NCBI GenBank assembly: GCA_002709835.1
Contig: PAQX01000033.1
Coordinates: 8,538 to 72,537, forward strand
Origin: Deltaproteobacteria bacterium
Lineage (GTDB): Bacteria; Myxococcota_A; UBA9160; UBA4427
Direction: 5' to 3'
Length of the DNA stretch: 64,000 nucleotides
Each line of letters begins with the position of its first letter. Positions within the stretch are counted from its first letter, which is position 1. A program made the position numbers and the translations under genes. The notes under the pieces were generated by a model. It had not been told where the DNA came from. It saw only the letters and a program-made list of their open reading frames with translations, and did no database searches. Positions 1,224 to 49,658 of the stretch are shown in pieces.

Positions 1224-1357
1224 CAGGAGGCTCCTGCCAGATCGCATGTGCAGAGACCCGACGATCGCATAGATCGGGCAGCCCGGTCGGCCAGGGGCCT
1301 CGAAGAGGCATTTGCTCGGCTAGGATTCGAGCGCACCAGCGAACGAGGGTAAGCGTC

Positions 1358-1939: not shown

Positions 1940-1958
1940 GCGGCGCGCACGCTTCGGA

Positions 1959-3173
1959 TCAAGCGACTGGCGGCCCGGCTTCGATCGGGTCCGGGTCGAT
2001 CAGGAGACATCGCGTCCCGGAGTAGATCGACGGCATGCACCGGTTGCAGTGGATGCAGACGCCTTCGCTTTGCTCGCCCCGCTGCATCTTGAGCAGCAGG
2101 TCCGGCTCCCGGAGCAGCGCACGCCCCATCTGCACGAAGCCGAAGCCGTCGTCGAGAGCTTTCTCGATCGTCGCGCGGTTGTTGACTCCGCCGAGCAGAA
2201 TCACCGGCAGGTCCAGCGCGTCCTTGAAGCGGCGCGCGTGTTCCTCGAAGTAGGCCTCCTCGAAGGGCGTGTCCGGCATGAACTTGCGCCCGACGAGCTT
2301 GAACCCGAATCGAAGCAGCGGGGAGAGCGCCGCCCCGAACTCCGAGCGCGGTGCGTCGCCCCGGAAGAGAAACATCGGATTGCCGAACGAGCTGCCGCCG
2401 GTCAGGACGAGCCCGTCGAGCGTTCCATCGGATTCGATCATCTTCGCGACCGCGAGACTCTCCTCGATCTCGAGACCCTTCGGGATGGCATCGATCATGT
2501 TGAGCTTTGCGGTGATCGCGAGGCGACCGCCGACGGCTTCACGCACGGCCTTCAGAACTTCGCGTGAGAGGCGGGCGCGCTTCTCCAGGGGGCCACCCCA
2601 GCGATCGGTCCGATCGTTGAGCGCCGGGGACAAGAAGGCGCTCAAGAGGTAGTTGTGCCCGAGATGGACCTCGAGCGCGTCGAAGCCCGCTTCCTCGCAA
2701 CCGAGCGCCGTTCGGCGGAAGTCGTCGATCACGCGTTCGAGGTCCGCCTCCGTCGCCGCCGGCGTGAAACGCATCGATAGAGGGTTGAATCGGCGAGAGG
2801 CGGTGAAGCCGACGACGCCGTTCGACTTCGAGTCGGCCACGGGGCCGGCGTGGCCAATCTGCGCGGAGGCCTTGGCGCCTTCCGCGTGGATCGCTTCGGT
2901 CAACTTGCGCAGGCCGGGGATCGCTTCGTCGCGCATGTAGAGGCAGGCGTGGTTGGTGCGGCCATCGGGTGCGACGGCCACGTAGGCGACCGTGTTCATG
3001 CCGACGCCGCCGGCGGCAACGCGCCGGTGGTAATCGATCAGCTCCGCGGTCACGAGCGCATCGGGCATCACGCCCTCGAAGGTCGCGCTCTTGATGACGC
3101 GGTTCCGCAGCGTGATCGGTCCGAGCCGCGCCGGCGCGAAGGGATCGACGCGCCTGGGCGCGTCGCCGCTCAT
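1959..3173 (-). CDS. NADH:flavin oxidoreductase (Old Yellow Enzyme family) with a C-terminal CxxCxxC..C motif
   Basis: Last 405 codons of the 945-aa track ORF: ITLRNRVIKSATFEG, QIGHAGP, EVHLGHNYLLSAFLSPALNDRTDRWGG (OYE TIM barrel), ending in CIHCNRCMPSIYSGTRC. ATG 3173 overlaps the stop of the upstream SDR (ATGA). The upstream 540 codons of the track ORF are Arg/Pro-rich junk. Confidence 0.9.
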   Translation of the reverse strand: MSGDAPRRVDPFAPARLGPITLRNRVIKSATFEGVMPDALVTAELIDYHRRVAAGGVGMNTVAYVAVAPDGRTNHACLYMRDEAIPGLRKLTEAIHAEGAKASAQIGHAGPVADSKSNGVVGFTASRRFNPLSMRFTPAATEADLERVIDDFRRTALGCEEAGFDALEVHLGHNYLLSAFLSPALNDRTDRWGGPLEKRARLSREVLKAVREAVGGRLAITAKLNMIDAIPKGLEIEESLAVAKMIESDGTLDGLVLTGGSSFGNPMFLFRGDAPRSEFGAALSPLLRFGFKLVGRKFMPDTPFEEAYFEEHARRFKDALDLPVILLGGVNNRATIEKALDDGFGFVQMGRALLREPDLLLKMQRGEQSEGVCIHCNRCMPSIYSGTRCLLIDPDPIEAGPPVA

Positions 3174-3940
3174 GCGAGCTGGCCGCCGTCGATCGTGACG
3201 CCGGAACCCGTCATGAAGCGGGCCTCGTCCGAAGCGAGGTAGGCGACGAGGGCCGCGATGTCCGTAGGCTCGGCGATCATCGGCATCTGCGGGGTGATCC
3301 GTGCGAAGAGCGCAGGATCGATGTTGTCGACGGGAAATCCGGCCGCCGTCATCGGCGTGCTCACGCCGCCCGGACAGATCGCGTTCACCCGGACGCCGCG
3401 ACGCGCGTACTCGGAGGCGAGGGACTTGGTCAGGCCGAGCACGCCGGCCTTGGACGCGCAGTAGGCGGCGTTGTAGGGCACGCCCTGGAGCGCCGCGGCC
3501 GAGGCGATGTTCACGATCGCGCAGCCTCCCACCGGCCCGTCTTCGCGGTCCACGAAGTGGGGGAGGGCGGCCCGGCACATCTGGAACGTGCCGGTGAGGT
3601 TGATGGCGATCGTGGCGTTCCAGATCGCGGGGTCCTGCTCGAGGGTGTGGCCCGGTCGAAGGATGCCCGCCACGTTGGCGAGGGTGTCGAGGCCGCCGAG
3701 CGCGTCGAGGGCCGCGGCGACGCCCGCTTCGCAGGCGCTCGGATCCGAGACGTCGACGGCTGCGGCAGCGGCCGTCCCCCCGGCACTCGTGATCTGCTCG
3801 GCCGTGTCTTCGGCGCCTTCGGCGGCGATGTCGACACAGAAGACCGCGGCTCCTTCCTCGGCGAGCCGGAGCGCCGTGCCGCGGCCGATGCCGCTCGCCG
3901 CGCCCGTCACCAGCGCGTGTCGTCTCTTCAGTCGATCCAT
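3170..3940 (-). CDS. SDR family oxidoreductase
   Basis: TGAASGIGRG Rossmann motif and the NAAYCASK (YxxxK) catalytic motif. Start set to ATG 3940 (MDRLKRR), which has AAGGAGA 5 nt upstream. Confidence 0.9.
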   Translation of the reverse strand: MDRLKRRHALVTGAASGIGRGTALRLAEEGAAVFCVDIAAEGAEDTAEQITSAGGTAAAAAVDVSDPSACEAGVAAALDALGGLDTLANVAGILRPGHTLEQDPAIWNATIAINLTGTFQMCRAALPHFVDREDGPVGGCAIVNIASAAALQGVPYNAAYCASKAGVLGLTKSLASEYARRGVRVNAICPGGVSTPMTAAGFPVDNIDPALFARITPQMPMIAEPTDIAALVAYLASDEARFMTGSGVTIDGGQLA

Positions 3941-4076
3941 GTCTGTCTCCTTCTCGTCCAGCGGGCTCGGCTCGTCGCCGAGGCGTCGAATCATACCCCG
4001 TCGCAGACGGCCGTTGACGAGATAGAATCGGACGGGTCCGGCGCTTCATACGCCGAGTCCCCGGAGAGGTCCAGCC

Positions 4077-4658
4077 ATGCACGAGTTCGATCGCGGCGTC
4101 ACGAAGTACGACATCATGCCGATCCCGCCGGTCGAGGCACAGAGCGAGCAGTTCGAGGCCGGCCCGGTCACGATCTGGGTCGAGTACCGGCTGCTCGACG
4201 ACGCGATCGCCGCGGCGCACCAGGCCAACGAGGGCTTCGACGGCAGGATCGAACAGATCGCCGACTGCGGGGTCTCGCTCCACGTCTTCGGGGAAGAGTC
4301 GCCCGGCGGAGAACGAATCGAGTTTCTCCGCTTCGATTGTTTCGACGAGGACCCCCATTACCACTACGTGTCGTACGCGAACAACACGAACGAGATGGTT
4401 CATCTCGAACCCGCCGCGACGGGCGATCCGCTCGAATGGGCGATGGATCGGATCCGGACGCGTCTGCCGCAGATGCTGGCGCGCGCGGGCGCGAAGGAGC
4501 TTGCGTCCCGGGTCGACGCGGCGGATCTCGAGCGTGTCCTGCCCAACGTGGCCGCGGCGGCCTATCGCGCACGCTTCAACCACGACGACGCGGCGATCCA
4601 CGCGGGGGCGATGGCTGAGGCCGAGCCGGTCGCGAAGGCCGGGGGAGCGGCTTCGTGA
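4077..4658 (+). CDS. hypothetical protein
   Basis: 193-aa ORF preceded by GGAGAGG. Its stop overlaps the GTG start of the next gene (GTGA). Composition is protein-like; no family recognised. Confidence 0.6.
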   Translation: MHEFDRGVTKYDIMPIPPVEAQSEQFEAGPVTIWVEYRLLDDAIAAAHQANEGFDGRIEQIADCGVSLHVFGEESPGGERIEFLRFDCFDEDPHYHYVSYANNTNEMVHLEPAATGDPLEWAMDRIRTRLPQMLARAGAKELASRVDAADLERVLPNVAAAAYRARFNHDDAAIHAGAMAEAEPVAKAGGAAS

Positions 4659-5518
4659 GCGGCCCCGTCGCGATCGATCGGGCGCTCGAAGGGCGCGTCG
4701 CGTTCGTGACCGGAGCGAGTCGAGGGATCGGTCGCGGCTGCGCCGTGGGACTCGGCGCCCGGGGCGGGACGGTCTACGTGACCGCGCGCCGGACATCCGA
4801 CGCCGACCCGCCCGAGGAAGGCTCGATCGAAGCCGTCGCCGCCGAGATCGACGCGGTCGGCGGCAAAGGCATCGCGATCGCCTGCGATCACCGCGATGAC
4901 GCGGCAGTCGAAGCGGTCTTCGAGCGTGTGCGTGCCGACGAGGGGCGCCTCGACGTCCTCGTCAACAACGCGTTCATCATCCCCAACGAATTGACGAGCG
5001 GGAAGCCTTTCTGGGAGGTCCCGATCTCGAACTGGGACGACATGATCGACGTGGGGACCCGCTCCGCCTTCGTCGCAAGTCGCTTCGCGGCGCCGATGAT
5101 GATCGAGGGAGGCGGGGGCCTCATTGCGAACATCTCTTCGAGCGGCGCGGTCGAGTATGCCTGGCATGTCGTCTACGGCGTGGGCAAGTGTGCACTCGAC
5201 CGGATCACGGCGGATACCGCCCACGAGCTGAAGCCGCACGGCGTGGCCGTCGTGTCGCTCTGGCCCGGTCTGGTCTTGACCGAGCGAAACGAAGCGAACG
5301 CGAAGAAGGTCAGAGGCCTCGACTTCAGCAAGGCCGAGTCCCTCTTCTTCACGGGTCGCGCGGTCGCGGCGCTCGCTTCGGACGAGAGGGTGATCGAGCG
5401 GACCGGGCAGGCGCTCGTCTCCCGCGCGCTTGCGGACGAGTTCGGGTTCGTCGACGTCGACGGGCGCCTCCCCGACGGGCCGATGCACGAGCGACCGAAG
5501 GGTATCGGGGACGCCTAG
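4655..5518 (+). CDS. SDR family oxidoreductase
   Basis: VTGASRGIGRG nucleotide-binding motif, NNAF, SSSG...YGVGK catalytic pattern. Confidence 0.9.
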   Translation: MSGPVAIDRALEGRVAFVTGASRGIGRGCAVGLGARGGTVYVTARRTSDADPPEEGSIEAVAAEIDAVGGKGIAIACDHRDDAAVEAVFERVRADEGRLDVLVNNAFIIPNELTSGKPFWEVPISNWDDMIDVGTRSAFVASRFAAPMMIEGGGGLIANISSSGAVEYAWHVVYGVGKCALDRITADTAHELKPHGVAVVSLWPGLVLTERNEANAKKVRGLDFSKAESLFFTGRAVAALASDERVIERTGQALVSRALADEFGFVDVDGRLPDGPMHERPKGIGDA

Positions 5519-5519
5519 T

Positions 5520-6794
5520 GTGAGGGAGCGACCTCCTGCGTGGATCGCGTTGGCGTTTGCCGCTGTCTTCGGCTGCCAGTCGCCGCCCGTTCGGGATCCC
5601 GAGGACCCCTTCGACGCGCTTCACGGGCTCGCCGAGGCGATCGAAGAAAGCGCCGAGATCGCCCGCGCGGACGCGGCGTCTGCGGTGCCCAACGGCGGCG
5701 CAGAAGGGGCGCTCCACGTGCTGCGACTGCTCCGGCGAGCGATCGACGAGGAGATCGCCTGGGCCGACACCGCACATCCCTTCTTCCAGACCCAGGACGA
5801 GCGCTTCGCGAAGCTCGCGCTCGGCAACCCAGACAACCTCTACCTCGTGACGCGCGTGGACGACGATGCGGAGTACGTCCTTCGCGGGCGGCTCGGCACG
5901 GCCGCCGACTTCAACGTGCAGGTCTACCAGGGCTATCCCGGGATCCATCGCCCGATGCGTGCGTTCGGCTCGATCGGGCTGGATACGTTGGTGACGGACG
6001 ACGCGGGGCGTTTCGAGATCCATGTGGGCGGCGCTGCGCAGGAGGAGAACTGGATCGAGCTCCTGCCCGGCTCGCGGCGGATCCTCGTGCGCTTCACCTA
6101 TGGCGTATGGGCCACCGAGGAAGCCGGAGAACTCACGATCGAGCGCGTGGGCGAGCGGGGCACGCGAAGCGGCGCTGTGACGAACGAAGGGGCGGCGCGA
6201 CGGATTGCTGCGTCGGCGGAGTATCTGGAGGACGCGCTGCGTGGCTACAGCGAGCTCGTCGGGCAGGTTCTCGTCGGGCTCGAACCGAATACGCTCCGCC
6301 CGATGCGGCGGCTCACCGGGGATCTGGGCGGTCTGTCGAGTCAGTACAACGCGACGGGACGCTATGCGGTCGACGACGGCACGGCGCTCGTGGTCACGAC
6401 CCGCCCTTCGGACGCGCGTTATCAAGGCTTCCAGATCGGGACGGAGTGGTTCGAGGCGCTCGACTTCGTGAACCAGACGACGAGCCTGAACACCACCCAG
6501 GCGCGCCTGTCCTCCGACGGGGTATATCGATTCGTGATCGCGACGCGGGATCCCGGCGTGGCGAACTGGCTCGATGCGTCGTCGGCGCCGCAGGGGCAGA
6601 TCCTGCTGCGCTGGCAGGGCGTCGTGGAAGAGCTGGGGCCGGAGCACGAGCCGACCGTCTCGCTGGTTTCGTTCGCGGAGATCCGGGCGCTCTTCCCGGC
6701 CGACGAGCCCGTCTTCGACGAAGCGGCTCGAAGCGCGCAGATTGCGGAGCGACAGCGCGCGATCGAGCGTCGCTACGGCCTTTCGGCCCGCTGA
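5520..6794 (+). CDS. putative lipoprotein, DUF1214-like (family assignment unverified)
   Basis: In-frame GTG 5520 is followed by WIALAFAAVFGCQ, a lipobox-like signal. LGNPDNLYLVTRVDDDAEYVLRG and NWLDASSAPQGQILLRWQG resemble DUF1214-type proteins from memory. Confidence 0.65.
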   Translation: MRERPPAWIALAFAAVFGCQSPPVRDPEDPFDALHGLAEAIEESAEIARADAASAVPNGGAEGALHVLRLLRRAIDEEIAWADTAHPFFQTQDERFAKLALGNPDNLYLVTRVDDDAEYVLRGRLGTAADFNVQVYQGYPGIHRPMRAFGSIGLDTLVTDDAGRFEIHVGGAAQEENWIELLPGSRRILVRFTYGVWATEEAGELTIERVGERGTRSGAVTNEGAARRIAASAEYLEDALRGYSELVGQVLVGLEPNTLRPMRRLTGDLGGLSSQYNATGRYAVDDGTALVVTTRPSDARYQGFQIGTEWFEALDFVNQTTSLNTTQARLSSDGVYRFVIATRDPGVANWLDASSAPQGQILLRWQGVVEELGPEHEPTVSLVSFAEIRALFPADEPVFDEAARSAQIAERQRAIERRYGLSAR

Positions 6795-6802
6795 GCCGCG
6801 CC

Positions 6803-8146
6803 GTGTCCAATCCTTCCGGAGACCGCCTCCCGCTTTCCCGCATTCTGCTCTACTCCCTGCCGTTCTCCGGCTATCTGGCGATGTCGATGCCGGTCGGAAT
6901 GTGGTTCGCGAAGTTCTCGACCGATCAGCTTCTGATCGCGCCTGGGATCATCGGCGCGATCATATTCCTCGCTCGGGCGTGGGATGCGGTTTCCGACCCG
7001 ATGGCGGGATATCTCTCCGACCGGACGAACACGCGCCTCGGGCGTAGGCGGAGCTGGTTGGTCGCCTCTGCGATCCCGGTCGGTCTGACCTACGTGATGC
7101 TCTGGACGCCGCCCGAGAGCCTCGGGACGACCGGCGTGATCGTCTGGATCGCCGCCGCGATGCTCCTCTGGGAGACGACCTCGACGGCCTTCTACGTGCC
7201 ATACCTGTCGCTCGGCCTCGAACTCACGACCGACTATCACGATCGGACGCGGCTCTTCGGCTGGCGCCAGGCGCTGGTCGCGGCGGGATTCGGCGCGTCG
7301 CTCGGTGCGCTCTCTTTCATGCAGAACGAGGCGGAATATCCGGATGCGGAGTTCCAGGTGGCCGTCGTGACTTCCGTGGCCCTCACCCTCCTGATTCTGA
7401 TCTGTGTACTGGGGGTCCCCGAGCCGAAACATCATCAGGGTCGCGGGAGCGACCGGCTCTGGAATGCCTTCGCCGATGTCCTGCGGAACCCGCACGCGCG
7501 CATCCTGCTCGTCGTGCTCGGGATCGACTCCTTCGGGATGGGGGCGATCTCCGGTCTCGGCGCGTACATGGCCGAAGACGTCGTCGGGCGAGGCGACATG
7601 TTGATTCCCATGATGTCGGTGTGGATGGTGCCGCAATTCGTTTGCGTGCCGATCTGGGTTCGCCTCTCCCGACGAATCGGAAAGAAGCGGCTCTGGTTCG
7701 CCGGGATGGTCTGCAGCATCACGGGCTTTCTGGGGATTCTTTTCGTGGGCGAAGGCGACTGGCTAGTGACGCTCGTGCAGGTCCTCCTGATCGGGGTCGG
7801 GACCAGCATCTCTCTGGTGATCGGCCCCTCCGTGCAGGCGGACGTCGTCGACTACGACGAGCTGCAGACCGGGGAGCGGAAGGAGGGGGCCTACGTGGCC
7901 GTCTGGAACTTCGTGCGTAAAGCTGGGGCCGCGTTCTCGATGGGCCTAGGGCTCTTCGTCATCGGTCTCACCGGGTACGACCCGCTGGCCGACCGACAAT
8001 CGGACCTCGTCGTCTCGTCCATTCGTGTGATGGCCGGCGTCGTTCCAGCGCTCGCGTTCACGGTCGGGGCCTTGTTTTTCGCCCAATTCGGGTTGGACGA
8101 GGCCGAGCATCGTCGCTTGCGTGCGGAGATCGCGGCCCGCGACTGA
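6803..8146 (+). CDS. MFS/GPH-family (glycoside-pentoside-hexuronide-like) transporter
   Basis: C-terminal 447 codons of track ORF 5540..8146, starting at GTG 6803. Multiple hydrophobic helices. The ARAWDAVSDPMAGYLSDRTNTRLGRRRSW motif is typical of MelB/UidB-type symporters. Confidence 0.85.
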   Translation: MSNPSGDRLPLSRILLYSLPFSGYLAMSMPVGMWFAKFSTDQLLIAPGIIGAIIFLARAWDAVSDPMAGYLSDRTNTRLGRRRSWLVASAIPVGLTYVMLWTPPESLGTTGVIVWIAAAMLLWETTSTAFYVPYLSLGLELTTDYHDRTRLFGWRQALVAAGFGASLGALSFMQNEAEYPDAEFQVAVVTSVALTLLILICVLGVPEPKHHQGRGSDRLWNAFADVLRNPHARILLVVLGIDSFGMGAISGLGAYMAEDVVGRGDMLIPMMSVWMVPQFVCVPIWVRLSRRIGKKRLWFAGMVCSITGFLGILFVGEGDWLVTLVQVLLIGVGTSISLVIGPSVQADVVDYDELQTGERKEGAYVAVWNFVRKAGAAFSMGLGLFVIGLTGYDPLADRQSDLVVSSIRVMAGVVPALAFTVGALFFAQFGLDEAEHRRLRAEIAARD

Positions 8147-8242
8147 GCCTCGAAATCGTCGCCCCACGCGACCTCCGCGCGTCTATCTTTGCCGGACTCT
8201 TGCGGGACGCGCCGCGACGAAGCGGACGCGTGAGGAGCGCCC

Positions 8243-10663
8243 ATGCCGACCCCCTTCGATGGCCTTCGTGTTCTCGATCTCTCCACCGGAATCGCCGGTC
8301 CCTTCGCGACGCGGCTCCTCGCGGACATGGGGGCCGAAGTCGTGAAGGTCGAGTCGCCGGAAGGCGATCCGCTTCGACGGATGAAGACTTCGGCCGTGCT
8401 CGGGCGATCCGCGCCCCTCGCCGAGGGCGAGGATGGCGCGCTCTTCCAGTGGTTGAATGCGTCGAAGAAGAGTCTCGTCCTCGATCTCGCGGACAGCGCC
8501 AAGGATCGTGCGAACTTCCTCCGCCTCGTCACGGACGTCGATGTCGTCGTAGAGAGCTTCGAGCCGGGGTGGCTCGACGCGCGCGCGATCGGCTTCGAGG
8601 CGATCAATGCCGCGAACCCGAAGGCGAGTCTCGTATCGATCACGCCCTTCGGTCAGGATGGTCCCTGGGCGAAGCGCGCCGCGACGGATTTCACGCTTCA
8701 GGCCGAGTCCGGCTCCTTCTCCGGTCGCGGCTACGAGGATCTCGGTCCCGTCGTCGCGGGAGGGCGGCTCGGGGAGTACTGCGCAGGCAACTTCGCCTCG
8801 GTCGCGGCGGCGACCGCGTGGCGCTCGGCGCGTCAACACGGGGCAGGGCGGCATGCGGACGTTTCGATGCTCGAGACGATGATCCTGTGCTTCCAGCCCT
8901 ATCAGTTCATCCAGGGGCAGATGCGTCCGGGCGAGCAGTTTCCCGTCATGGTCGAGGTTCCGTCGATCGAGCCGGCTTCGGACGGGATGATCGGCTTTTC
9001 GACCCAGACCTCCCAGCAGTGGCATGACCTGTGCGTCATGGTGGAGCAGCCCGAGTGGGTGACGGATGACTCCCTCTGTCTCGGGCAGGAGCGCTACGAG
9101 CGTCGCGAGGAGCTTCTCTCGAAGATCCAGGAATGGACGCGGTCCCACTCGATCGACGAGATCGTCGATCTCTGCATCCAGCTCAGGATTCCCGTCGCGC
9201 CGATCGGGAACGGCAAGACGGTGCTCGAGACGGATCACATGATTGCGCGCGGCTTCTACCGCTCCCATCCCGAGGGCTTCCAGGCGCCGGGGGTGCCCTT
9301 CCGTCTCGAAGACGGGGACGTCGCGTCGTTGACCCCGGCTCCGAAGCTCGGCGAGCACACCGAAGAGATTCTTGCGGGATTCGCGCCGCGCCCGCCTGCG
9401 CCCGTGCTTTCTTCGGTCGGGAACGCGCCGCTTGCCGGGCTCAAGGTCGTCGACTTCACCGCATTCTGGGCGGGCCCATTCGCGGCGACGACCCTTGCCG
9501 AGCTCGGCGCGGAGGTGATCAAGGTCGAATCGATCCAGCGACCGGATGGGATGCGCTTCGCGTCGGGGTTCATCCCCGAAGACGGCATCGTCTGGGAGTG
9601 GGCGCCGGTCTTCCACGGCGCCAACTCCGGCAAGAAAGCCGTCACGCTCAATCTGGACGACGAAGAAGGTCTCGCTCTCGCGCGAGAGCTCGTTCGGCAG
9701 GCCGACGTGGTGATCGAGAACTTCTCGCCCCGCGTCATGGAGCGCTTCGGCTTCGATGGGCCCGCGGTGAAAGAACTGAACCCGGACGCAATCCTGATCC
9801 GGATGCCCGCCTTCGGGCTCGACGGGCCATGGCGGGATCGGGTCGGATTCGCGATGACGATCGAGCAGGCCTCGGGGCTCGCCTGGGTGACGGGCTTTCC
9901 GGATCGCGAACCGACGGTGCCGCGCGGGATCTGTGACCCGGTCGGGGGCATGACGGCGGTGCTCGCGCTGCTGGGGGCTCTGGAGCGCAAGGGGCAGGGC
10001 GCGGGCGGTCAGGTGATCGAGGTCTCGCTGCTCGAGGTCGGCTTGTTGCTCGCGGGAGAGCAGGTCGTCGAGCAAACCGCCTACGACGTGCTGCTCGAGC
10101 GGTCGGGCAACGTCGGGCCGGTCGCGTCGCCGCAGGGCGTCTATGAATGCCGCGACGAACGGAATCCGGACGATCTCGGCTGGGTCGCGATCGCGTGTGC
10201 GAACGACGAACAGTGGAGGGCACTCGTCGAAGCGCTCGGTCGCCCTGAATGGGCGAAAGCAGACGCCTTCGCCACGGAAGCAGGACGTCGCGCCGGTGCC
10301 GACCTGATCGATCGCGGTCTCGGGAAATGGTGCGCCGGCCGGTCCGGGCAGGAAATCTGCGACGCGTTGGCTGCTGCGGGGGTCCCCGTCGGTTGGCTCC
10401 ACAACCAGCGGGAGAACGTCCCCGGCCACGAACATCTCGATGCCCGAGGCTTCCTCGAGTTCCTCGATCATCCCTTCGCGGGGCGGATCGGTTATCCGCG
10501 CTCCTCGGTCCGGTACGACGGGGTGAAGACCGAGCGCACGTTGCCGCCGCTCCTGGGCGAGCACAACGATGAGATCCTGCGCGAGCGTCTGGGGAAATCC
10601 TCCGAAGAAATCCGCGCCCTCGAGGAGAAGAAGGTCGTCGGGACGCGTCCGAGCTTCCTCTAG
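8243..10663 (+). CDS. tandem-fused family III (CaiB/BaiF) CoA-transferase, two complete domains in one chain
   Basis: The N-terminal signature appears twice: GLRVLDLSTGIAGPFATRLLADMGAEVVKVESPEGDP, and near residue 395 LAGLKVVDFTAFWAGPFAATTLAELGAEVIKVESIQRPDG. GAGGAG SD precedes ATG 8243. Confidence 0.9.
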   Translation: MPTPFDGLRVLDLSTGIAGPFATRLLADMGAEVVKVESPEGDPLRRMKTSAVLGRSAPLAEGEDGALFQWLNASKKSLVLDLADSAKDRANFLRLVTDVDVVVESFEPGWLDARAIGFEAINAANPKASLVSITPFGQDGPWAKRAATDFTLQAESGSFSGRGYEDLGPVVAGGRLGEYCAGNFASVAAATAWRSARQHGAGRHADVSMLETMILCFQPYQFIQGQMRPGEQFPVMVEVPSIEPASDGMIGFSTQTSQQWHDLCVMVEQPEWVTDDSLCLGQERYERREELLSKIQEWTRSHSIDEIVDLCIQLRIPVAPIGNGKTVLETDHMIARGFYRSHPEGFQAPGVPFRLEDGDVASLTPAPKLGEHTEEILAGFAPRPPAPVLSSVGNAPLAGLKVVDFTAFWAGPFAATTLAELGAEVIKVESIQRPDGMRFASGFIPEDGIVWEWAPVFHGANSGKKAVTLNLDDEEGLALARELVRQADVVIENFSPRVMERFGFDGPAVKELNPDAILIRMPAFGLDGPWRDRVGFAMTIEQASGLAWVTGFPDREPTVPRGICDPVGGMTAVLALLGALERKGQGAGGQVIEVSLLEVGLLLAGEQVVEQTAYDVLLERSGNVGPVASPQGVYECRDERNPDDLGWVAIACANDEQWRALVEALGRPEWAKADAFATEAGRRAGADLIDRGLGKWCAGRSGQEICDALAAAGVPVGWLHNQRENVPGHEHLDARGFLEFLDHPFAGRIGYPRSSVRYDGVKTERTLPPLLGEHNDEILRERLGKSSEEIRALEEKKVVGTRPSFL

Positions 10664-10760
10664 GCCATCGAAGGGCCCTCGCCAGCGCCTCGAAAACGGG
10701 GGCAGCGACTGCTCGTCCAGTGTGTAACGTAGAGGGATACCAACGATTGGAGGGCCACCC

Positions 10761-11927
10761 ATGGGCCGCAAGTACCAGATCATTTCCGGTGACGGGCACG
10801 TCGAGACGCCCCCTGAGTCCTGGGTCAAGTACATGCCCGAGATCTACCAGGACCGCGCGCCGCGCCTGGTGAAACTCGCGACCGGCGGTGAAGCCTGGCT
10901 CATCGAAGGCCAGCCGCTGATCCCGAACGGCCAGAACATCACGGGCCGTGGTCCTGTCGTGACCGAGGGCGGTAGCTACTTCAACGAAGATGGAAGTTCC
11001 GCGGAAGGCGCCGGCGACGCAGCCCAGCGTCTGCGTGAGCAGGACATCGACGGCATCGATGCCGAGGTCCTCTTCCCGCCGATCTTCGCGTCGCGGGCGA
11101 TCGAGAACATCGGGGACAAGGACGTCTACCGCGCCCTCATTCGCGCATACAACACCTTCCTCGCGAGGGATTACTGCGCCGTCGCCCCCGATCGGCTGAT
11201 CGGGAACGGGGTGGTCCCCACGACGGGGGTCGAAGACGCGATCGCCGAGATCGAGTTCCTCGTCGACAACGGTATCCGCTCGGTTTCGCTCCACATGTTC
11301 CCGAACGGCTCCGGCTTCGCGAAGCCCGAAGACGACGAATTCTGGAAGCGTTCCCTCGAGATCGGCATGAAGCTCTCGCCGCATTTCGGGTTCGGGCAGT
11401 TTGCGCCGGACATGAGCAGCGTGGGCGTCGGCACCGGCCCCGACCCTTTTGCTGGGACGATCGTCCAGCGCGTCAGCGGCCAGCCGCCGATGTACAACAT
11501 GAGCCAGATCATCTGCTCGGGTGCCCTCGACCGCTTCCCGGATCTTCAGTTCTACTTCGCAGAAGTGAACGCGAGCTGGCTGCCCTGGGGTCTCTTCGTG
11601 ATCGACGACAACTACGAGATCTTCAAGGGCACCTTCGATCGAAAGCTCGAGCGGAAGCCGTCCGAGTACATCCTCGATCATTTCTGGTTCGGGATCATCC
11701 GAGATCCCAAGTGCGTCGCGATGCGTGACCACCTCCCCTTCGATCGATTGATGTTCGGCTCGGATTTTCCGCATTCGGTCGGGTCCTATCCGAAGTCGAA
11801 GCAGTTCCTCGATGACGCCTTCGACGGCGTGCCGGACTCCTACCGGAGCCAGATGCTCCTCGAGAACCCGGCGAAGTACTTCGACCTGGACCTCGACGCC
11901 GACATCACTCCGACGCCGGAGGCCTAG
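10761..11927 (+). CDS. amidohydrolase-2 family (metal-dependent TIM-barrel hydrolase/decarboxylase)
   Basis: YQIISGDGHVETPP (HxH-type metal motif region), ...DGIDAEVLFP..., ...RLMFGSDFPHS at the C-terminus. GGAGGG SD. Confidence 0.85.
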   Translation: MGRKYQIISGDGHVETPPESWVKYMPEIYQDRAPRLVKLATGGEAWLIEGQPLIPNGQNITGRGPVVTEGGSYFNEDGSSAEGAGDAAQRLREQDIDGIDAEVLFPPIFASRAIENIGDKDVYRALIRAYNTFLARDYCAVAPDRLIGNGVVPTTGVEDAIAEIEFLVDNGIRSVSLHMFPNGSGFAKPEDDEFWKRSLEIGMKLSPHFGFGQFAPDMSSVGVGTGPDPFAGTIVQRVSGQPPMYNMSQIICSGALDRFPDLQFYFAEVNASWLPWGLFVIDDNYEIFKGTFDRKLERKPSEYILDHFWFGIIRDPKCVAMRDHLPFDRLMFGSDFPHSVGSYPKSKQFLDDAFDGVPDSYRSQMLLENPAKYFDLDLDADITPTPEA

Positions 11928-12023
11928 CTTTCGCGGGGCCTTCCTTCGGTATCTCGCCGGCCTGCGACGACCCGTTGCGGGCCGGTTTCGTCAGACACAC
12001 TCCATCATCACTCCCGAGGCAAG

Positions 12024-12470
12024 ATGAGCGAATCCGTTTCCGATGCCGAGTTGGTCGAGCGCTTCCCGTGGGTCCAGATCACTCACGATTCGAAGTTTCA
12101 CTTCCGAGGTTGGCTCGACAAGCAGCTCCTGATCAACCGCTGCGCCGATTGCGGCAACTGGCACCACCCGCCGAAGCCGGTCTGTCCGGTCTGCTGGTCC
12201 GAGAATCTGGTCCCGACCGAGGTCGACGGAACCGGGACGATCCATCTGGCGATGGCGCTCCACCAAGGCGCGCCGGCGCCCGGAGTCGACTACGCGAAGG
12301 GACCGCACCCGGTCGTCGCCGTCGACCTCGATGGCGCGGACGGCGTTCGCTTCAGCAGTACGGTCATCGGTCTGCCGCCCGAGGAAGTCGTGATCGGTCT
12401 GCCGGTTGAGCTCGACTGGGTAGAGCGCTACGGCCACCCGTTCCCGGTCTTCCGAAAGCGTGAGGCGTAG
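12024..12470 (+). CDS. Zn-ribbon/OB-fold protein (DUF35 family)
   Basis: CADCGNWHHPPKPVCPVC four-Cys rubredoxin-like ribbon followed by an OB-fold-like region. Sits directly upstream of a thiolase-like gene, the canonical DUF35 arrangement. Confidence 0.85.
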   Translation: MSESVSDAELVERFPWVQITHDSKFHFRGWLDKQLLINRCADCGNWHHPPKPVCPVCWSENLVPTEVDGTGTIHLAMALHQGAPAPGVDYAKGPHPVVAVDLDGADGVRFSSTVIGLPPEEVVIGLPVELDWVERYGHPFPVFRKREA

Positions 12471-12474
12471 CAAC

Positions 12475-13665
12475 ATGGCACGACGAAATCCGATGCGAGA
12501 CGAGATCGCGATCGTCGGTGTGGGGTCGACCGATTTCAGCCGGGATGCGGGGGGAATCTCTGCGGCGAAGCTGGGGGCGCAGGCCTGTATCGCTGCGATC
12601 CAGGACGCGGGGATCGACAAGAGCGAGATCGATGGGGTGGTCGGGGCGCTTGAGCCCGGCGCCCCGCGCGCGAACCAGATGTCCTCGATCCTGGGGCTGA
12701 ACGACATCACCCATCATTCGAGTCCGATGCCCGTCGCGGTCTCCGCGCTCGTCGACGCGATGACGGCGATCTTCTCGGGGCAGTGCGACACGGTCCTCGT
12801 GTACTACGCGTTCACCCGGGCGCCGTGGAACTCGCGCTCCGCAGCGCAAGATCCCTTCCGGAGCTACCTCGGTGGGATGATGAGCGGCGGACTCAAGGCA
12901 CCGCCGATGCCCGAGTCGATCGATCCGTCGGCGGCCTATACCGCCTGGGCCCAGCGCTATATCCATGAGTACGACGTTCCGCGCGAAACCTTCGGTCGGG
13001 TGGCCATGAACATGCGTGCGAACGCGGCCAGGAATCCGAAGGCGGCAATGAAGACGCCCCTCACCATGGAGGCCTATCTGGAAGCGCGCATGATCCGGGA
13101 TCCGCTCTGCATGCTCGACATGGATATTCCGGTCGATGGGGCGGATGCCTTCATCCTGACGACGACCGAGAAGGCGAAGAAGCTGACGCCGAATCCCGTC
13201 GTGGTGCACACGGCGACGGCCGGCATGGTCGGTCGCAACGACGAAGACCAGCTGCCCTCCCTCGAGCGCCACGGTCAGCACGTCGTCGTCGAAGCGCTCA
13301 AGGAGCGCAGCGACGTCTGGATCGACGACGTCGACGTCTTCTTTCCCTACGACGGCTTCTCGATCATCACCCTCGGTTGGATCGAGAACATGGGCTTCGC
13401 GAAGCGTGGACAGGCGGGACGTTGGATGCTCGATCATTGGGACGAGGATCTCGGCTGCGTGATGATCGATGGGCGTGTCCCGATGAATCCCCACGGCGGT
13501 TCGCTGTCGGAAGGGGCTTCTCGCGGGACCGGCCATCTGCGCGAGGCAGTCATGCAGCTTCGTGGCGACGCAGGTGAGAGACAGGTCCATGACGCGAAGA
13601 CGGCTTTGATCGGCTGCGGCGGGTTCTTCTTCAACTCCCAGGGTGCGATCCTTAAGCGGCTCTAA
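12475..13665 (+). CDS. thiolase-like / SCP-x-type lipid-transfer protein
   Basis: EIAIVGVGSTDFSRD...AAKLGAQACIAAIQDAGIDKSEIDGVV... and a C-terminal ...NPHGGSLSEG...GCGG pattern. Start set to ATG 12475, after the DUF35 stop. Confidence 0.85.
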   Translation: MARRNPMRDEIAIVGVGSTDFSRDAGGISAAKLGAQACIAAIQDAGIDKSEIDGVVGALEPGAPRANQMSSILGLNDITHHSSPMPVAVSALVDAMTAIFSGQCDTVLVYYAFTRAPWNSRSAAQDPFRSYLGGMMSGGLKAPPMPESIDPSAAYTAWAQRYIHEYDVPRETFGRVAMNMRANAARNPKAAMKTPLTMEAYLEARMIRDPLCMLDMDIPVDGADAFILTTTEKAKKLTPNPVVVHTATAGMVGRNDEDQLPSLERHGQHVVVEALKERSDVWIDDVDVFFPYDGFSIITLGWIENMGFAKRGQAGRWMLDHWDEDLGCVMIDGRVPMNPHGGSLSEGASRGTGHLREAVMQLRGDAGERQVHDAKTALIGCGGFFFNSQGAILKRL

Positions 13666-13685
13666 CCCGAAAGAAGGCGGACGAG

Positions 13686-15416
13686 ATGGCGGACTTCGTC
13701 ATTCGTGGAGCGACGATCCTCGATGGGACGGGCACGCCCGGTTTCGTCGGGGACGTCGGGGTGCGCGAGGGTCGGATCGCGTTCGTCGGCACCGGCGACG
13801 CAGAGGGGCTGGAGGTCGTCGATGGGACGGGCCTCATGCTCACGCCCGGTTTCGTGGACCCACACACCCACTACGACGCCCAGCTCGCCTGGGACCCCAC
13901 GGCCTCGCCCTCGAACCTGCATGGCGTCACGACCATCATCGGCGGCAACTGCGGCTTCTCGATCGCGCCGCTCGGCCCGAACGACGCCGACTACATCCGG
14001 CGGATGATGTCGGTCGTCGAGGGGATGCCCCTCGAAGCGCTCGAACAAGGCATCGACTGGGGCTGGCAGGGCTTCGGGGAGTGGCTCGACCGGTTGGACG
14101 GGAAGACGGCGGTGAATGCCGCTTTTCTCGTCGGCCACTGCGCGCTCCGGCGTACGGTGATGGGGGACCGCGCGGTCGGGAACGAAGCGACGGTAGAAGA
14201 GATCGCCGCGATGTCGACGCTCCTTCGCGAGTCGATTCAGAGTGGGGCGATCGGCCTCTCGTCTTCCCGCTCCTTCACGCACCGCGATGGTGACGGCGAA
14301 CCCGTGCCTTCCCGGGCTGCGAGCGAGGAAGAGCTTCTGGCGCTCTGTGACGTCACGGGTGCACACGAGGGCACGACCCTCGAGTTCATCACCGACGGCT
14401 GTCTTCATGGATTCGAGGACCGCGAGGTCGACCTGATGACGCGCATGTCCCTCCGTGCGGGACGTCCGCTGAACTGGAACGTCTTCACGATCGATTCGAA
14501 GGAGCCGGATCGCTTTCGCAATCAGTTGACCGCCCAGGAGAAGGCGGCGGAGCAGGGCGCCGAAGTCGTGGCGCTCACGATGCCGACCCTGGTCGGGCTG
14601 ACGATGAGCTTTGAAACCTACTCGCCGATCCATCAGCTGCCGGGATGGCGCGACGTCCTCTCGCTTCCGCTCCAGGAGCGGATGGCTGAGCTCCGTAAGC
14701 CGGACGTCCGCGCTCGTCTCCTCGAGGGTTCACGCTCCCCCGAAGCGGGGGTCTTCGCGAGGGTCGCCGACTTCCCGAATTTCCGGATCGGCGAGACCCA
14801 TTCGAGAGCGAACGAAGGGCTGACCGGTCGGCTGGTCAAGGACATCGCTGGCGAGCGCGCTGCGCAGGACTTCGACACCCTCATCGACATCGTCCTCGAA
14901 GACGACCTGCGGACCGTCCTCTGGCCGGATCCACCGGACGACGACGAGTCGAGCTGGGCGCTTCGTCGCCAGGCCTGGGAGAACGGACACACCCTCCTTG
15001 GCGGTTCGGATGCGGGTGCACATCTCGACCGGATGTGCGGCGCGCCTTATACGACCGACTTCCTGGCGGATTGTTTGCGGGGGCGGAAGCTCTGGCCCGT
15101 CGAAAAGGCGGTGCAGGCGCTCACCGACCGCCCGGCGCGCCTCTTCGGCCTACGCGATCGAGGGCGCATCGCGCCGGGGCACTACGCGGACCTCGTCCTC
15201 TTCGATCCCGCAGAGATCGGCTCCGGCCTGATCCACGAACGCCGCGACCTGCCTGGGGATTCGGCCCGCTTGTTCGCGGAGTCGACCGGAATTCGACGCG
15301 TCTACGTAAACGGCGAGGCGATCGTCGTCGAGGGATGCCCGACGGAGGCCGTTCCGGGTCGGATCCTACGTTCGGGTAGGGATACCGAGACGGTCGGGAT
15401 CCCGGCGCGCGGCTGA
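13686..15416 (+). CDS. N-acyl-D-amino-acid deacylase-like amidohydrolase
   Basis: FVIRGATILDGTG...GDVGVREGRIAFVG...TPGFVDPHTHYD, then ...LGGSDAGAHLD..., typical of the D-aminoacylase family. Confidence 0.85.
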   Translation: MADFVIRGATILDGTGTPGFVGDVGVREGRIAFVGTGDAEGLEVVDGTGLMLTPGFVDPHTHYDAQLAWDPTASPSNLHGVTTIIGGNCGFSIAPLGPNDADYIRRMMSVVEGMPLEALEQGIDWGWQGFGEWLDRLDGKTAVNAAFLVGHCALRRTVMGDRAVGNEATVEEIAAMSTLLRESIQSGAIGLSSSRSFTHRDGDGEPVPSRAASEEELLALCDVTGAHEGTTLEFITDGCLHGFEDREVDLMTRMSLRAGRPLNWNVFTIDSKEPDRFRNQLTAQEKAAEQGAEVVALTMPTLVGLTMSFETYSPIHQLPGWRDVLSLPLQERMAELRKPDVRARLLEGSRSPEAGVFARVADFPNFRIGETHSRANEGLTGRLVKDIAGERAAQDFDTLIDIVLEDDLRTVLWPDPPDDDESSWALRRQAWENGHTLLGGSDAGAHLDRMCGAPYTTDFLADCLRGRKLWPVEKAVQALTDRPARLFGLRDRGRIAPGHYADLVLFDPAEIGSGLIHERRDLPGDSARLFAESTGIRRVYVNGEAIVVEGCPTEAVPGRILRSGRDTETVGIPARG

Positions 15417-15443
15417 CGCCTCTCGGCACGCCGCGCGCGCGGG

Positions 15444-15794
15444 TCACATCTCGCGCTTCTGGACCCATGACGTGCACCAGGCCGTCGTCGGGACCTTGCC
15501 CTCCACGAAGAGCCCGCACTTACCGTACTCGCCTTCGTTCACGATGAGCAGCGCGCAGTTCCCGCACTGCTGCCCTTCTCGTTCCGAGTCGCCGATGTAC
15601 GCGACCTGGGAGAGCAGGAGTGAGTTGCTCTTGACGTCGGACACGAGGTCCGGGCCGGCTTTTTCGGCGTCCTCGTGGTGATCGGCGAGAGCCGGCACCG
15701 CCGGCGTCGCCACGGCGAGGGCGGTGCCCATCGCGAGTAGGTGGAAATCACGGCGACTGATCGCCTTCCGCGGGGTCTCTTTCTTCGAATTCAT
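15444..15794 (-). CDS. high-potential iron-sulfur protein (HiPIP) with a Tat signal
   Basis: SRRDFH twin-arginine motif. Cluster ligands CGNC-x13-C-x13-WC followed by TSW (GWCxxW-type). Lies 3 nt downstream of sdhB on the same strand. Confidence 0.9.
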   Translation of the reverse strand: MNSKKETPRKAISRRDFHLLAMGTALAVATPAVPALADHHEDAEKAGPDLVSDVKSNSLLLSQVAYIGDSEREGQQCGNCALLIVNEGEYGKCGLFVEGKVPTTAWCTSWVQKREM

Positions 15795-15797
15795 GCC

Positions 15798-46605: not shown

Positions 46606-49044
46606 TCAGTTGACGAGACCGCTCGCCACCAGATCGGCGACCTCTTCCGCCTCGAACCCGAGTTCCTCCGCGAGGACCTCGAAGCTATCCCCACCGATCA
46701 GCGGGGATGCGTGGCGCGGGCCGTTGTCGTAGCCCGAGATCCGGAACTGGTGACCGGAGTAGGGGATGCGGCCCATTTCGGCATGGTCGAAGTGGCGGTA
46801 GAAGCCGCGTTGGGCGTACTGAGGGTCGTTCTGGAGGTCGCTGCTCCGCTGGACGTGGCCCGCCGGCACGCCGGCGTCGACCAGGACCGCCATCGCTTCC
46901 CGGGGCTTCCGCTCCCGGGTCCAAGCCGCGAGCTCCGCATCGATCGCGTCGTGTGCCGCGAGGCGTCCCGCGACGGTCTCGAGCTTCGGGTCCCGCGCCC
47001 ACTCGGGATCACCGAGGGTCCGACGGAGCGCGGCCCACTGGGCATCGTCCTCGACGGCGATCGCGAGCCATTCGTCTTCTCCGGCGCAGGGGTAGGCGCC
47101 CTGGGGCGCGGCGTCCCGAGAACGGTTGCCGTTGCGGGTGATCTCGAGGTCCGTGGTCTGCCGGGCGAGGAGCTCCGGTGCCAGGAAGTGGAGGGCGGCC
47201 TCCATCTGACCGAGGTCGATATGCTGGCCCTCGCCCGTGCGGCGTCGGTGATCGAGGGCGGCGAGCAGGGTCGTCGTCAGGAAGCGCGGGGCAACGGTGT
47301 CGGTGTAGGCGTTCCAGGGGCCGACGGGCGGGCGGTCGGGCCAGCCGGTCAGGTCGAAGAAGCCAGCGACGGCGGCGGCGTGGTAGCCGTAGCCGGCCAT
47401 GTTCGCGATGCGTCCGGTCTGGCCCATCAGACAGGTGCTCACCATGACGACGCTCGGGTTCGCCGCGCGCGCGGCCTCGTAGCCGATGCCGAGGCGATCG
47501 ACGGCCCCCGGAGTGAAGCTCTCGAGGATCACGTCCGCCCACTCGATCAGGCGGCCCGTGATCTCACGCGAACGTTCGTGCTTCATGTCGACGGTCAGGC
47601 TGCGCTTCGACGTGTTGAACTCGCCGAAGAACTGGGAGCGATTCCAGCCGCGTTGGTCATCCTTGTAGGGGCCGGCGGTGCGCAGGTTGTCGGCCTTCAC
47701 GCTCGACTCGATCCGGATCACGTTCGCGCCGTGGTCCGCGAGGTATTTTCCTGAGATCGGACCGACGCCCACCCACGAGAAGTCGGCGACCTTGAGGCCT
47801 TCGAGGGGGTATTCGGGCACGGGCGTGCTCTCGCGAAGCGGGGTCCGCTCGCGGGGTGCCGCGTCGAGCTCACGTAGGATCTCGTCCGTGTGTTCTCCGA
47901 GCCGCGGAGCGCGCCGCTCGATCTCGAAGGGCTGGAGGCTCGAGCGCGCGAAGGGGCCTGGCGTGCGGGCCGAGCCGCCGCCGGGCAGCTCGACCTCGTG
48001 GAAGTAGGCGCGGTCCTCGAGCTGCTCGAAGGTGAGCATGTCGTCGAGGGTCATGACGGGCGCGATGGTGAGGCCCTTCTCGAGGCCGGGCAGGAAGAGC
48101 TCCCGTTTCGTCTTCGTCTCGAGATAGGAATCGACGGTGGCGTCGAGTTCCTGGAGGGAGACCTTCAGCTCGCCGTTGCTGAAGATTCGCTGGCTGTAGC
48201 TGTCCCAGTCTTCCCGGGCGAGGAAGGCTTCGTCGATCGTGCCCGCCTCGAGGAGGATCGGCGTGAGCTTCTTGAACGACTCGGTCGTGATGAGGGTGAC
48301 GACGTGGCCGTCCTTCGCGGGGTGGGCCAACTCGAGGTCCTTCGGGCCGATCTGGAGCTTCGCGGCGTTCCGCTCGTAGTCGAAGCCCTGGATCGGTTCG
48401 GCGGTCAGGCCATTCAGCATGGTCCAGGTGAGCGCACTCTGGGCAGAGACGTCGATGAAGACGCCCTTCCCGGTCGTGCGTGCGCGGGCGTGACCGACCA
48501 TCGCGGCGACTGCAGCTTCCGAACCTGCATGCCGCCAGGCCTGCGGAACCGAGAGGCGGAGCGGAGCGCGATCTCGGTCGCCCTGGAGCGACATCGATCC
48601 CGCGAGCGCCGCGAGGGTGAGGTCGGCAGCAGGCCAGTCCGCGGCGGGGCCGTCGCTTCCGAAGGGCGTGACGCGGACGTGGACGAGCTGCGGGTTCGCC
48701 TCGAGGAGCATCGCGTGATCGAGGCCCGCTTCGTCGAGGAGGCTCGGCGGACCGGAGTCGAGGACGAAGTCGGCGCCCCGGGCCAGCTCGAGGAAACGCG
48801 CGCGCCCCTCTTCCGTTGCGAAGTCGAGGACGACCGAGCGCTTGTTGCGGTTGTAGGCCGCAAACGAGAGGCTGCGCTCGCTCTCAGGTCCTTCTTCTAG
48901 GAGCGGGCCGACCTGTCGAGCGGCGCTTCCGTCGGCGGGTTCGACACGCACGACGTCGGCGCCGAGATCGCCGAGCATCATGCCGGCAATCTGGCCACGG
49001 ACATCGGTCAGGTCGAGGACGCGGTATGGCGCGAGCAGGTCCAT
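46606..49044 (-). CDS. tandem-fused family III (CaiB/BaiF) CoA-transferase, paralog of 8243..10663
   Basis: The signature appears twice: YRVLDLTDVRGQIAGMMLGDLGADVVRVEPADG and LEGLKVADFSWVGVGPISGKYLADHGANVIRIESSVKADN. 812 aa. Confidence 0.9.
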   Translation of the reverse strand: MDLLAPYRVLDLTDVRGQIAGMMLGDLGADVVRVEPADGSAARQVGPLLEEGPESERSLSFAAYNRNKRSVVLDFATEEGRARFLELARGADFVLDSGPPSLLDEAGLDHAMLLEANPQLVHVRVTPFGSDGPAADWPAADLTLAALAGSMSLQGDRDRAPLRLSVPQAWRHAGSEAAVAAMVGHARARTTGKGVFIDVSAQSALTWTMLNGLTAEPIQGFDYERNAAKLQIGPKDLELAHPAKDGHVVTLITTESFKKLTPILLEAGTIDEAFLAREDWDSYSQRIFSNGELKVSLQELDATVDSYLETKTKRELFLPGLEKGLTIAPVMTLDDMLTFEQLEDRAYFHEVELPGGGSARTPGPFARSSLQPFEIERRAPRLGEHTDEILRELDAAPRERTPLRESTPVPEYPLEGLKVADFSWVGVGPISGKYLADHGANVIRIESSVKADNLRTAGPYKDDQRGWNRSQFFGEFNTSKRSLTVDMKHERSREITGRLIEWADVILESFTPGAVDRLGIGYEAARAANPSVVMVSTCLMGQTGRIANMAGYGYHAAAVAGFFDLTGWPDRPPVGPWNAYTDTVAPRFLTTTLLAALDHRRRTGEGQHIDLGQMEAALHFLAPELLARQTTDLEITRNGNRSRDAAPQGAYPCAGEDEWLAIAVEDDAQWAALRRTLGDPEWARDPKLETVAGRLAAHDAIDAELAAWTRERKPREAMAVLVDAGVPAGHVQRSSDLQNDPQYAQRGFYRHFDHAEMGRIPYSGHQFRISGYDNGPRHASPLIGGDSFEVLAEELGFEAEEVADLVASGLVN

Positions 49045-49063: not shown

Positions 49064-49450
49064 TCAGGTGTCGGCGTTGTAGACGCGCTCGGTGAAGCGC
49101 CAGCCGTCGGCGGTCTTCGTCAGCTTGTCGAGATAGCGGCCCGTGGTGATGACCTTGTACTCGGGGCCGGCGATGTAGCCGAGGAGGAAGGCGGAGCCGT
49201 TCGCCGCGTCGCCCTCGCCGTCGACGACGACGTTGGTCGCGTTGTGGCGCATGAGCGGCATCATCTCATGGGTCTTCACCGCGAACTCGGAGATCGCCTC
49301 CTGGCCCTCGCAGAGGGTATGGCCCGGGTTGAAGACGCCATCGGCGACGAAAAGCCCCCCGAAGGTCTCGCCGTCTCCGGTGTCGATCGCGGTGTTGTAG
49401 CGGGCGTAGAGCATCTGGATCTCGATCACGTCGTCGGTCGTCAGCGGCAT
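49064..49450 (-). CDS. SnoaL-like / NTF2-fold protein
   Basis: 128 aa from ATG 49450. [32 protein letters not shown]...[20 protein letters not shown] is the typical NTF2-like cone pattern. Confidence 0.7.
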
Positions 49451-49658
49451 GGGGCTTCCTTCTTTGAGTGCGCGCGGCGGTTTCGGCGGGCCGTGTGCAG
49501 CGAGGGGAGACGCTACGGCATGGCCGATTCGTCGCAAGCGAGTCGCCCCCGTTCGCCCTCGAGCGGAATCTCGGCGACCCCCGTTGCACCGCGCTATAAC
49601 CCCGTCGTCGCGGCCCCCGAAACAGCGGCTGCGACGTCTGGAGGCGACGAGGACGCGC

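Follow-up and report, generated by a model that had tools for sequence, protein, structure and literature searches.

The 64,000-nucleotide window analysed here (assembly GCA_002709835.1, contig PAQX01000033.1, positions 8,538 to 72,537; C33:8538-72537 in our contig numbering) comes from a metagenome-assembled genome (MAG) of a deltaproteobacterium and encodes two large paralogous family III CoA-transferases. The first of them, open reading frame (ORF) A (8243..10663, plus strand, 806 aa), is a real and widespread single-chain fusion of a BbsE-like non-catalytic module and a BbsF-like catalytic module, BbsE and BbsF being the two separate subunits of the benzylsuccinate CoA-transferase BbsEF. 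Its paralog, ORF B (46606..49044, minus strand, 812 aa), is also a single open frame carrying two PF02515 domains.

The PF02515 family (CoA_transf_3, CaiB/BaiF) recognizes both proteins with whole-protein scores of 597 bits (E 2e-179) for A and 569 bits (E 6e-171) for B, the cut-off being 23.3 bits, and finds two full-length stretches in each of them, the second domain starting at residue 397 in A and at residue 414 in B. A first-pass annotation of this DNA had described the 806-aa product as two complete CaiB/BaiF modules, each opening with a glycine-rich signature, near residues 7 and 395. Both modules are found, and the signatures are located at residues 6-20 (DGLRVLDLSTGIAGP) and 398-412 (AGLKVVDFTAFWAGP). 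The N-half (residues 1-378, 8243..9376) is assigned, from its matches and its clustering with BbsE, to a BbsE-type module devoid of the Asp nucleophile. The C-half (residues 396-806, 9428..10660) is assigned to a BbsF-type catalytic module from its sequence, its Foldseek matches and its position in a clade with BbsF. Between them lies a Pro-rich and poorly conserved linker (residues ~379-395, GFAPRPPAPVLSSVGNA, 9377..9427), which falls in non-consensus columns of alignment A1.

The catalytic column was numbered so that D169 of Frc corresponds to D178 of BbsF. In HMMER alignments, Asp565 of A ('GICDPVGG'; codon GAC, 9935..9937) lies opposite the Asp of 4ed9 (FADIFTG), of the Brucella Frc 10uh (MTDIVAG) and of human SUGCT (MTDLATG), and opposite Asp178 of BbsF ('NYTDHV'), which is the site of the CoA adduct according to the title of PDB entry 9fol; Asp565 is the predicted nucleophile. 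In the N-half, the residue facing the Asp of the same three structures is Glu178 ('GGRLGEYCAG'; codon GAG, 8774..8776). The replacement of Asp by Glu in the N-half only, which had initially been read by eye and for which a profile or structure alignment had been proposed as a check, is borne out by this comparison with solved structures: the N-half has no aligned Asp. The same asymmetry had been announced for B and is also found there, although with another replacement residue, Trp170 in the N-half (48535..48537, minus strand) and Asp582 in the C-half (47299..47301, minus strand).

Origin and breadth of the fusion

It should be emphasized that A was initially taken for a tandem duplication of one module. 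Its two halves share only 29% identity, while the N-half has 30% identity with BbsE and likewise with the N-half of B, and the C-half has 32-33% with BbsF and with the C-half of B. Since each half resembles BbsE or BbsF at least as much as it resembles the other half, A is the fusion of long-diverged E-type and F-type subunits, i.e. of old paralogs, and a recent tandem duplication is ruled out. The scores go in the same direction: the N-half reaches 147 bits against BbsE (9fn0_A) and 101 bits against BbsF (9fn0_B), whereas the best sequence match of the C-half is BbsF (9fn0_B, E 7e-54). The accompanying statement that family III enzymes are obligate homodimers does not hold either, as BbsEF is a natural heteromer combining BbsE, with Tyr171 at the catalytic column, and BbsF, with Asp178.

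Phylogenetic analyses of the separate halves lead to the same picture. The 41 domains of this genome were placed together with five solved references in a tree calculated with IQ-TREE. There, BbsE is joined by six of the seven fused N-halves and by one gene of a split pair (two adjacent unfused genes) of contig C5, the one carrying Tyr (SH-aLRT 98), and BbsF is joined by seven of the eight fused C-halves and by the other gene of the pair, which carries Asp (SH-aLRT 97). A FastTree analysis was done on 285 halves, drawn from proteins that represent clusters at 50% identity (124 representatives, sharing 33-56% identity with A). This second tree gathers 128 of 129 N-halves with BbsE in one group (support 99) and 129 of 130 C-halves with BbsF in the other (support 96), the sole exception being C5f, a fused gene of this genome. 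Furthermore, the pairwise distances between N-halves and those between C-halves are correlated (r = 0.69, exceeded in 0/500 permutations), as expected if the halves were inherited together. The phylogeny that had been called for in the first pass indicates that the fusion type is older than the paralogs A and B, their N-halves belonging to one clade with BbsE and their C-halves to another with BbsF. Judged by these sequence relationships, the two-domain class is a covalent version of a BbsE/BbsF-type heteromer. Split pairs are nested inside the fused clades, and the internal resolution is weak, so that one fusion followed by later fissions and several independent fusions are not distinguished.

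The exception mentioned above, C5f (C5:11487-13835), has both its halves outside the E-type and F-type clades. It carries a Ser in the N-half and an Asp in the C-half, the latter being on a long branch, and looks like an independent fusion event.

Fused proteins of this type are common. A word-indexed search retrieved at least 5095 proteins matching A with E <= 1e-20, and the best 120 homologs are nearly all 795-830 aa long with 100% query coverage. Among genomes scanned at one per species, at least 594 loci encode fused homologs; they lie in Myxococcota, Binatia, Acidimicrobiia (including complete 'Poriferisocius' chromosomes) and Haliea/Halioglobus, and the cultured carriers include Mycobacterium szulgai, Mycolicibacterium sphagni, Rhodococcus parequi and Frankia. 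The nearest full-length homologs with an organism name belong mostly to Myxococcota/Deltaproteobacteria MAGs. These numbers agree with the initial proposal that the fusion is conserved rather than a recent accident.

The AlphaFold2 model of A, made from a 50-sequence alignment, has a pLDDT of 93 and a pTM of 0.95 without any low-confidence segment, and the region of the linker reaches mean pLDDT values of 83 (residues 381-390) and 87 (residues 391-400). In a Foldseek comparison of this model with the PDB, BbsF chains come first, with a template modelling (TM) score of 0.90-0.91 on the target and 32% identity, followed by SUGCT, Frc, YfdW, YfdE, Mct, Rv3272 and CaiB. A complete monomer of BbsF or SUGCT can be superposed on either half of A (TM ~0.9), and no match extends beyond a single half (TM on the query <=0.47), no solved two-domain member being present in that library. 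The high pTM of the model fits a fixed pseudo-dimer, in which the halves would interlock. Altogether, the comparisons support the view that A is an old, conserved and covalently fused pseudo-dimer.

One catalytic site or two

The two catalytic columns do not evolve in the same way. The Asp of the C-half is invariant in all 121 close homologs, at 80 of 80 genomic loci and in 124 of 124 cluster representatives. The N-half column contains Glu in 65 representatives (52%), Asp in 22 (18%) and other residues, including Q, S, L, A, Y, H and R, in 37 (30%); at the 80 genomic loci, it contains Glu 61 times, Asp 15 times and another residue four times. B belongs to a subclade close to BbsE/BbsF, where the N column is mostly non-acidic, and the 33 rows of this B/BbsE-type remainder are acidic in 27% of the cases. 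The seven complete fused genes of this genome show Glu three times, Asp twice, Trp once and Ser once, and the non-catalytic members of its two split pairs have Tyr and Leu. The conserved one-active-site architecture suggested in the first pass therefore stands as far as the C-half is concerned, its Asp alone being invariant, but not as a general loss in the N-half, which keeps an Asp in 18% of the representatives and in two of the seven complete fused paralogs examined here.

Other observations speak for an inert N-site. The mean column entropy is 2.41 for the N-half and 2.09 for the C-half, with 7 and 22 near-invariant columns, respectively; on this measure the N-half is less constrained and evolves slightly faster than the C-half. 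Nearly all C-halves (96%) and single-domain paralogs (95%) have an Asn within an E-N-F motif, whereas no more than 3-9% of N-halves have it, A carrying Ser105 at this position (codon AGC, 8555..8557). By its motif, this Asn is taken to be Asn100 of mesaconyl-CoA transferase, which makes a hydrogen bond with the pantetheine of CoA (PMC9196870). Together with the Tyr of BbsE at the catalytic column and the cost of a Glu at this position in PtmU4 (see below), this suggests, with good though not full confidence, that the C-half provides the working nucleophile and that the N-half, probably inactive as a catalyst, is a structural partner completing the pocket.

According to this reading, Asp565 would attack the donor acyl-CoA to give a mixed anhydride and then an Asp-CoA thioester, from which CoA would be passed to the acceptor acid. 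The N-half, with Glu178 and Ser105, would mainly be an obligatory partner, needed to complete the interlocked pseudo-dimer and contributing its small domain to the pocket of the C-half. The fusion would fix a 1:1 heterodimer within one chain.

Several observations weigh against such a simple division of labour. The column is Glu in 119 of 121 close homologs, and this near-fixed Glu178 is the one feature that a purely structural N-half leaves unexplained. In the A-type N clade (97 rows), 84% of the sequences are acidic at the column, which is more than a dead site predicts. Homologs at least 48% identical share about 50 invariant columns in the N-half, some of them in motifs resembling those of a CoA pocket. 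The strongly conserved motifs of the N-half are GDPLRR, LNxxK, GPWxxRP, TEFTLQAxxGS and GGRxGE, and Glu178 itself lies inside the conserved GGRxG(E/D)(W/Y) motif. Lastly, the catalytic C-half of B has a Ser at the E-N-F position, so that the loss of the Asn is no proof of inactivity and is supportive only.

These observations could mean that each half has a function and that the pocket of the N-half, with Glu178, forms another site for catalysis or ligand binding. Such a site could carry out CoA transfer, provide a general base for a step of the lyase or epimerase type, or bind CoA or acyl-CoA for regulation; family III includes racemase members. The acidic residue found at 76 of the 80 genomic loci, the Asp retained in 22 of the 124 representatives and in two fused paralogs of this genome, and the strong conservation of the N-half motifs all favour this possibility, as does the existence of DddD, a two-domain transferase/lyase (PMC6006322). 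However, the N column is non-acidic in 30% of the representatives while the C-half Asp never varies, the E-N-F Asn is gone from nearly all N-halves, the related BbsE has a Tyr at the column, and the needs of the interface and of the C-half pocket could account for much of what is conserved in the N-half. Moreover, in the two-domain enzyme PtmU4, the change of the Asp into Glu (D430E) cripples the protein, with a 125-400-fold loss of activity (PMC6006322). A crystal structure of the corresponding D169E variant of Frc (PDB 1vgr) is among the Foldseek matches. A second site appears rather unlikely. For the A-type subclade, it is also improbable, but worth keeping in mind, that the N-half is not dead and that the fused enzyme is bifunctional, with acid/base chemistry on acyl-CoA, or allosterically regulated by CoA or acyl-CoA. 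If true, such a bifunctional or internally regulated enzyme would be undescribed for family III CoA-transferases other than DddD. The near-fixed Glu178 is a testable question on pseudo-active sites.

Operon context and related genes of the source genome

A probably activates an imported organic acid within a conserved breakdown operon. The gene order around A is kept at two orthologous loci, L081 and L082, whose CoA-transferases are 87% and 70% identical to A and whose contigs measure 835 kb and 963 kb. On the minus strand, an OYE flavoprotein (1959..3173) overlaps a short-chain dehydrogenase/reductase (SDR, 3170..3994). They are followed on the plus strand by a DUF7700 protein (4077..4658), a second SDR (4655..5518), an unknown protein ending at 6794 and, directly upstream of A, a transporter of the MFS_2/GPH family (6803..8146; PF13347 E 1e-89, TIGR00792 230 bits). 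Downstream of A, on the same strand, are an Amidohydro_2-fold protein (10761..11927; PF04909), a DUF35 protein with zf-ChsH2 and OB domains (12024..12470; PF12172, PF01796) and an overlapping SCP-x/lipid-transfer-type thiolase (12460..13665; PF22691, PF00108, NCBIfam lipid-transfer protein). The co-directional block ends with an Amidohydro_3, D-aminoacylase-like hydrolase (13686..15416; PF07969, PDB 1m7j E 8e-47). Both SDRs and the DUF7700 protein are in the same order at L081 and L082, where the transporter, the DUF35 protein, the thiolase and the Amidohydro_3 hydrolase are also found. The DUF7700 protein, which matches neither PDB nor NCBIfam entries, adjoins an SDR in all three orthologous operons.

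The Amidohydro_2-fold neighbour is a candidate dinuclear oxygenase. Its best PDB matches are PtmU3 (6omp, E 6.7e-33) and the diterpenoid hydroxylase DitZ (8uyr, E 8.5e-24), which are diiron 'amidohydrolase-related dinuclear oxygenases' (ARO) (PMC13154177). It carries D11-G-H13 (D-x-H) and D335-F-P-H, with a Val where the published ARO motif has D/E, and may be an oxygenase rather than a hydrolase or a decarboxylase.

Taken together, these genes could encode a five-step route. A carboxylic acid would be imported by the adjacent MFS_2 transporter, activated with CoA by A, hydroxylated by the PtmU3/DitZ-like oxygenase, oxidized by the SDRs and finally submitted to C-C cleavage by the DUF35/SCP-x thiolase pair. 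We tentatively propose, with low confidence, that the operon would break down an alicyclic or terpenoid-type acid by C-C cleavage resembling that of beta-oxidation. An analogy in enzyme types with the Bbs pathway and with the CoA-dependent degradation of terpenoid or steroid rings and side chains is plausible. The operon may be an uncharacterised CoA-dependent route for such acids in environmental, mostly uncultured Myxococcota and relatives. Two results weigh against a precise assignment. First, no equivalog of NCBIfam reaches its cut-off for A, B or the operon neighbours, and substrate and CoA donor are guesses; A and B only give partial matches to succinate-glutarate, formyl-CoA, mesaconate and carnitine CoA-transferases. 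Second, a comparison of the neighbours of A with those at the 80 genomic loci (41-55% identity to A) revealed none that is common at >=40% identity except generic SDRs, the operon being kept only around close orthologs (>=70% identity).

DMSP (dimethylsulfoniopropionate) is abundant in marine habitats. This fact, the nearest full-length homologs being mostly from Myxococcota/Deltaproteobacteria MAGs, the shared two-domain class with its C-terminal Asp and the resemblance of one neighbour to PtmU3, an enzyme of the same platensimycin pathway as PtmU4, could suggest that A is a PtmU4-type enzyme transferring sulfur to an acyl-CoA to form a thioacid, or a DddD-type DMSP CoA-transferase/lyase. However, the context of A, with its MFS_2 transporter, ARO-like oxygenase and DUF35/thiolase pair, contains no thioacid cassette and no DMSP operon. 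Neither a PtmA3-like acyl-CoA synthetase nor a ThiS/MoaD-type sulfur carrier is present among the genes from 387 to 16559 or at L081 and L082, and neither a BCCT-type transporter nor dddB/C-type dehydrogenases flank A or its orthologs at these two loci. Judged by this context, A would be of neither type. Furthermore, the Asp of PtmU4 is residue 430, and not about 565 as in A, which implies a different domain layout, and the published thioacid group is limited to Actinobacteria, Beta- and Gammaproteobacteria (PMC6006322). Both functions are very improbable for A, and the activation of an acid for degradation remains the preferred role.

The surroundings of B give no clear pathway clue, its downstream neighbours being DinB-like and EamA genes. 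A SnoaL_4 (NTF2-like) gene (49064..49480, minus strand) ends 20 bases upstream of the start of B on the same strand and is probably co-transcribed with it.

A and B are part of a large set of related genes. The source genome, a MAG of 3.99 Mb that is 77% complete in 108 contigs, contains 39 PF02515 domain matches. They correspond to seven complete fused genes, one fused gene cut by a contig end, two adjacent unfused pairs and about 17 single-domain genes, and these genes are distributed over contigs C5, C10, C27, C28, C83, C86, C89 and C100 besides C33. In the C5 split pair, the F-like (Asp) gene is upstream of the E-like (Tyr) gene, which is the reverse of the fused order. One member of the second pair (C27:24085-26480), C27pair_up (Leu), groups with a solitary gene of C86 (Ile; C86:12499-13635) apart from the BbsE group, with a support of 100, and the Asp-less C27 member adjoins an Asp-bearing partner. 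These C27 and C86 genes seem to represent another line of family III modules that is devoid of the Asp and independent of the first, the heteromer having then arisen more than once.

An assembly or frameshift artefact joining adjacent BbsE-like and BbsF-like genes into an 806-codon frame, for which the 108 contigs of the MAG and the two adjacent unfused E/F-like pairs on C5 and C27 could be invoked, can safely be dismissed, given the number and breadth of the full-length homologs (at least 5095 of about 800 aa, from many independent assemblies including complete chromosomes and cultured strains), the eight fused copies of this genome, one of them cut by a contig end, the linker that is in frame without a stop and the confidence of the AlphaFold2 model across the junction.

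Relationship with known systems

The architecture of A is already in the literature, and the gene itself is no discovery. A two-domain family III class has been described, which counted 2401 homologs in 2017, most of them in Actinobacteria and Proteobacteria (Dong et al. 2018, PMC6006322). DddD was its only characterised member before PtmU4, and a conserved, essential Asp is carried by the C-terminal domain, at residue 430 in PtmU4 (PMC6006322). Like these enzymes, A is a single polypeptide with tandem family III domains, a poorly conserved linker and a conserved Asp in the C-terminal domain; it is an ordinary new member of the described class. What the present analysis brings is a framing of this class as a fused BbsE/BbsF-type heteromer, the invariant C-half Asp and the drifting N column predicting one working site per chain.

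The closest relationship is that with BbsEF. The N-half of A goes with BbsE, which has Tyr171 and no Asp, and the C-half goes with BbsF, with its Asp178, whose chains are the best sequence and fold matches. In A, the E-like half precedes the F-like half, in line with the alphabetical naming of the bbs genes. The DUF35/thiolase pair and the two SDRs of the operon are of the enzyme types of BbsAB and BbsCD. However, A is not an ortholog of BbsEF within a bbsABCDEFGH operon, while its two halves do qualify as E-type and F-type modules. BbsE and BbsF are separate polypeptides whereas A is one chain, their identity with the halves of A is only 30-32%, and the dead column is Glu in A and Tyr in BbsE. 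Neither an acyl-CoA dehydrogenase of the BbsG type nor a hydratase of the BbsH type was found near A, and the thiolase reaches only 73 bits with the NCBIfam BbsB model, the cut-off of which is 750.

The homodimeric family III enzymes (Frc/YfdW, CaiB, SUGCT, YfdE, Rv3272 and Mct) share with A the PF02515 fold made of a Rossmann-type large domain and a small domain, the column of the Asp nucleophile, and GxGQxxDV and related motifs, which are found in both halves of A. While these enzymes are symmetric interlocked dimers with two identical sites, A is covalent and asymmetric.

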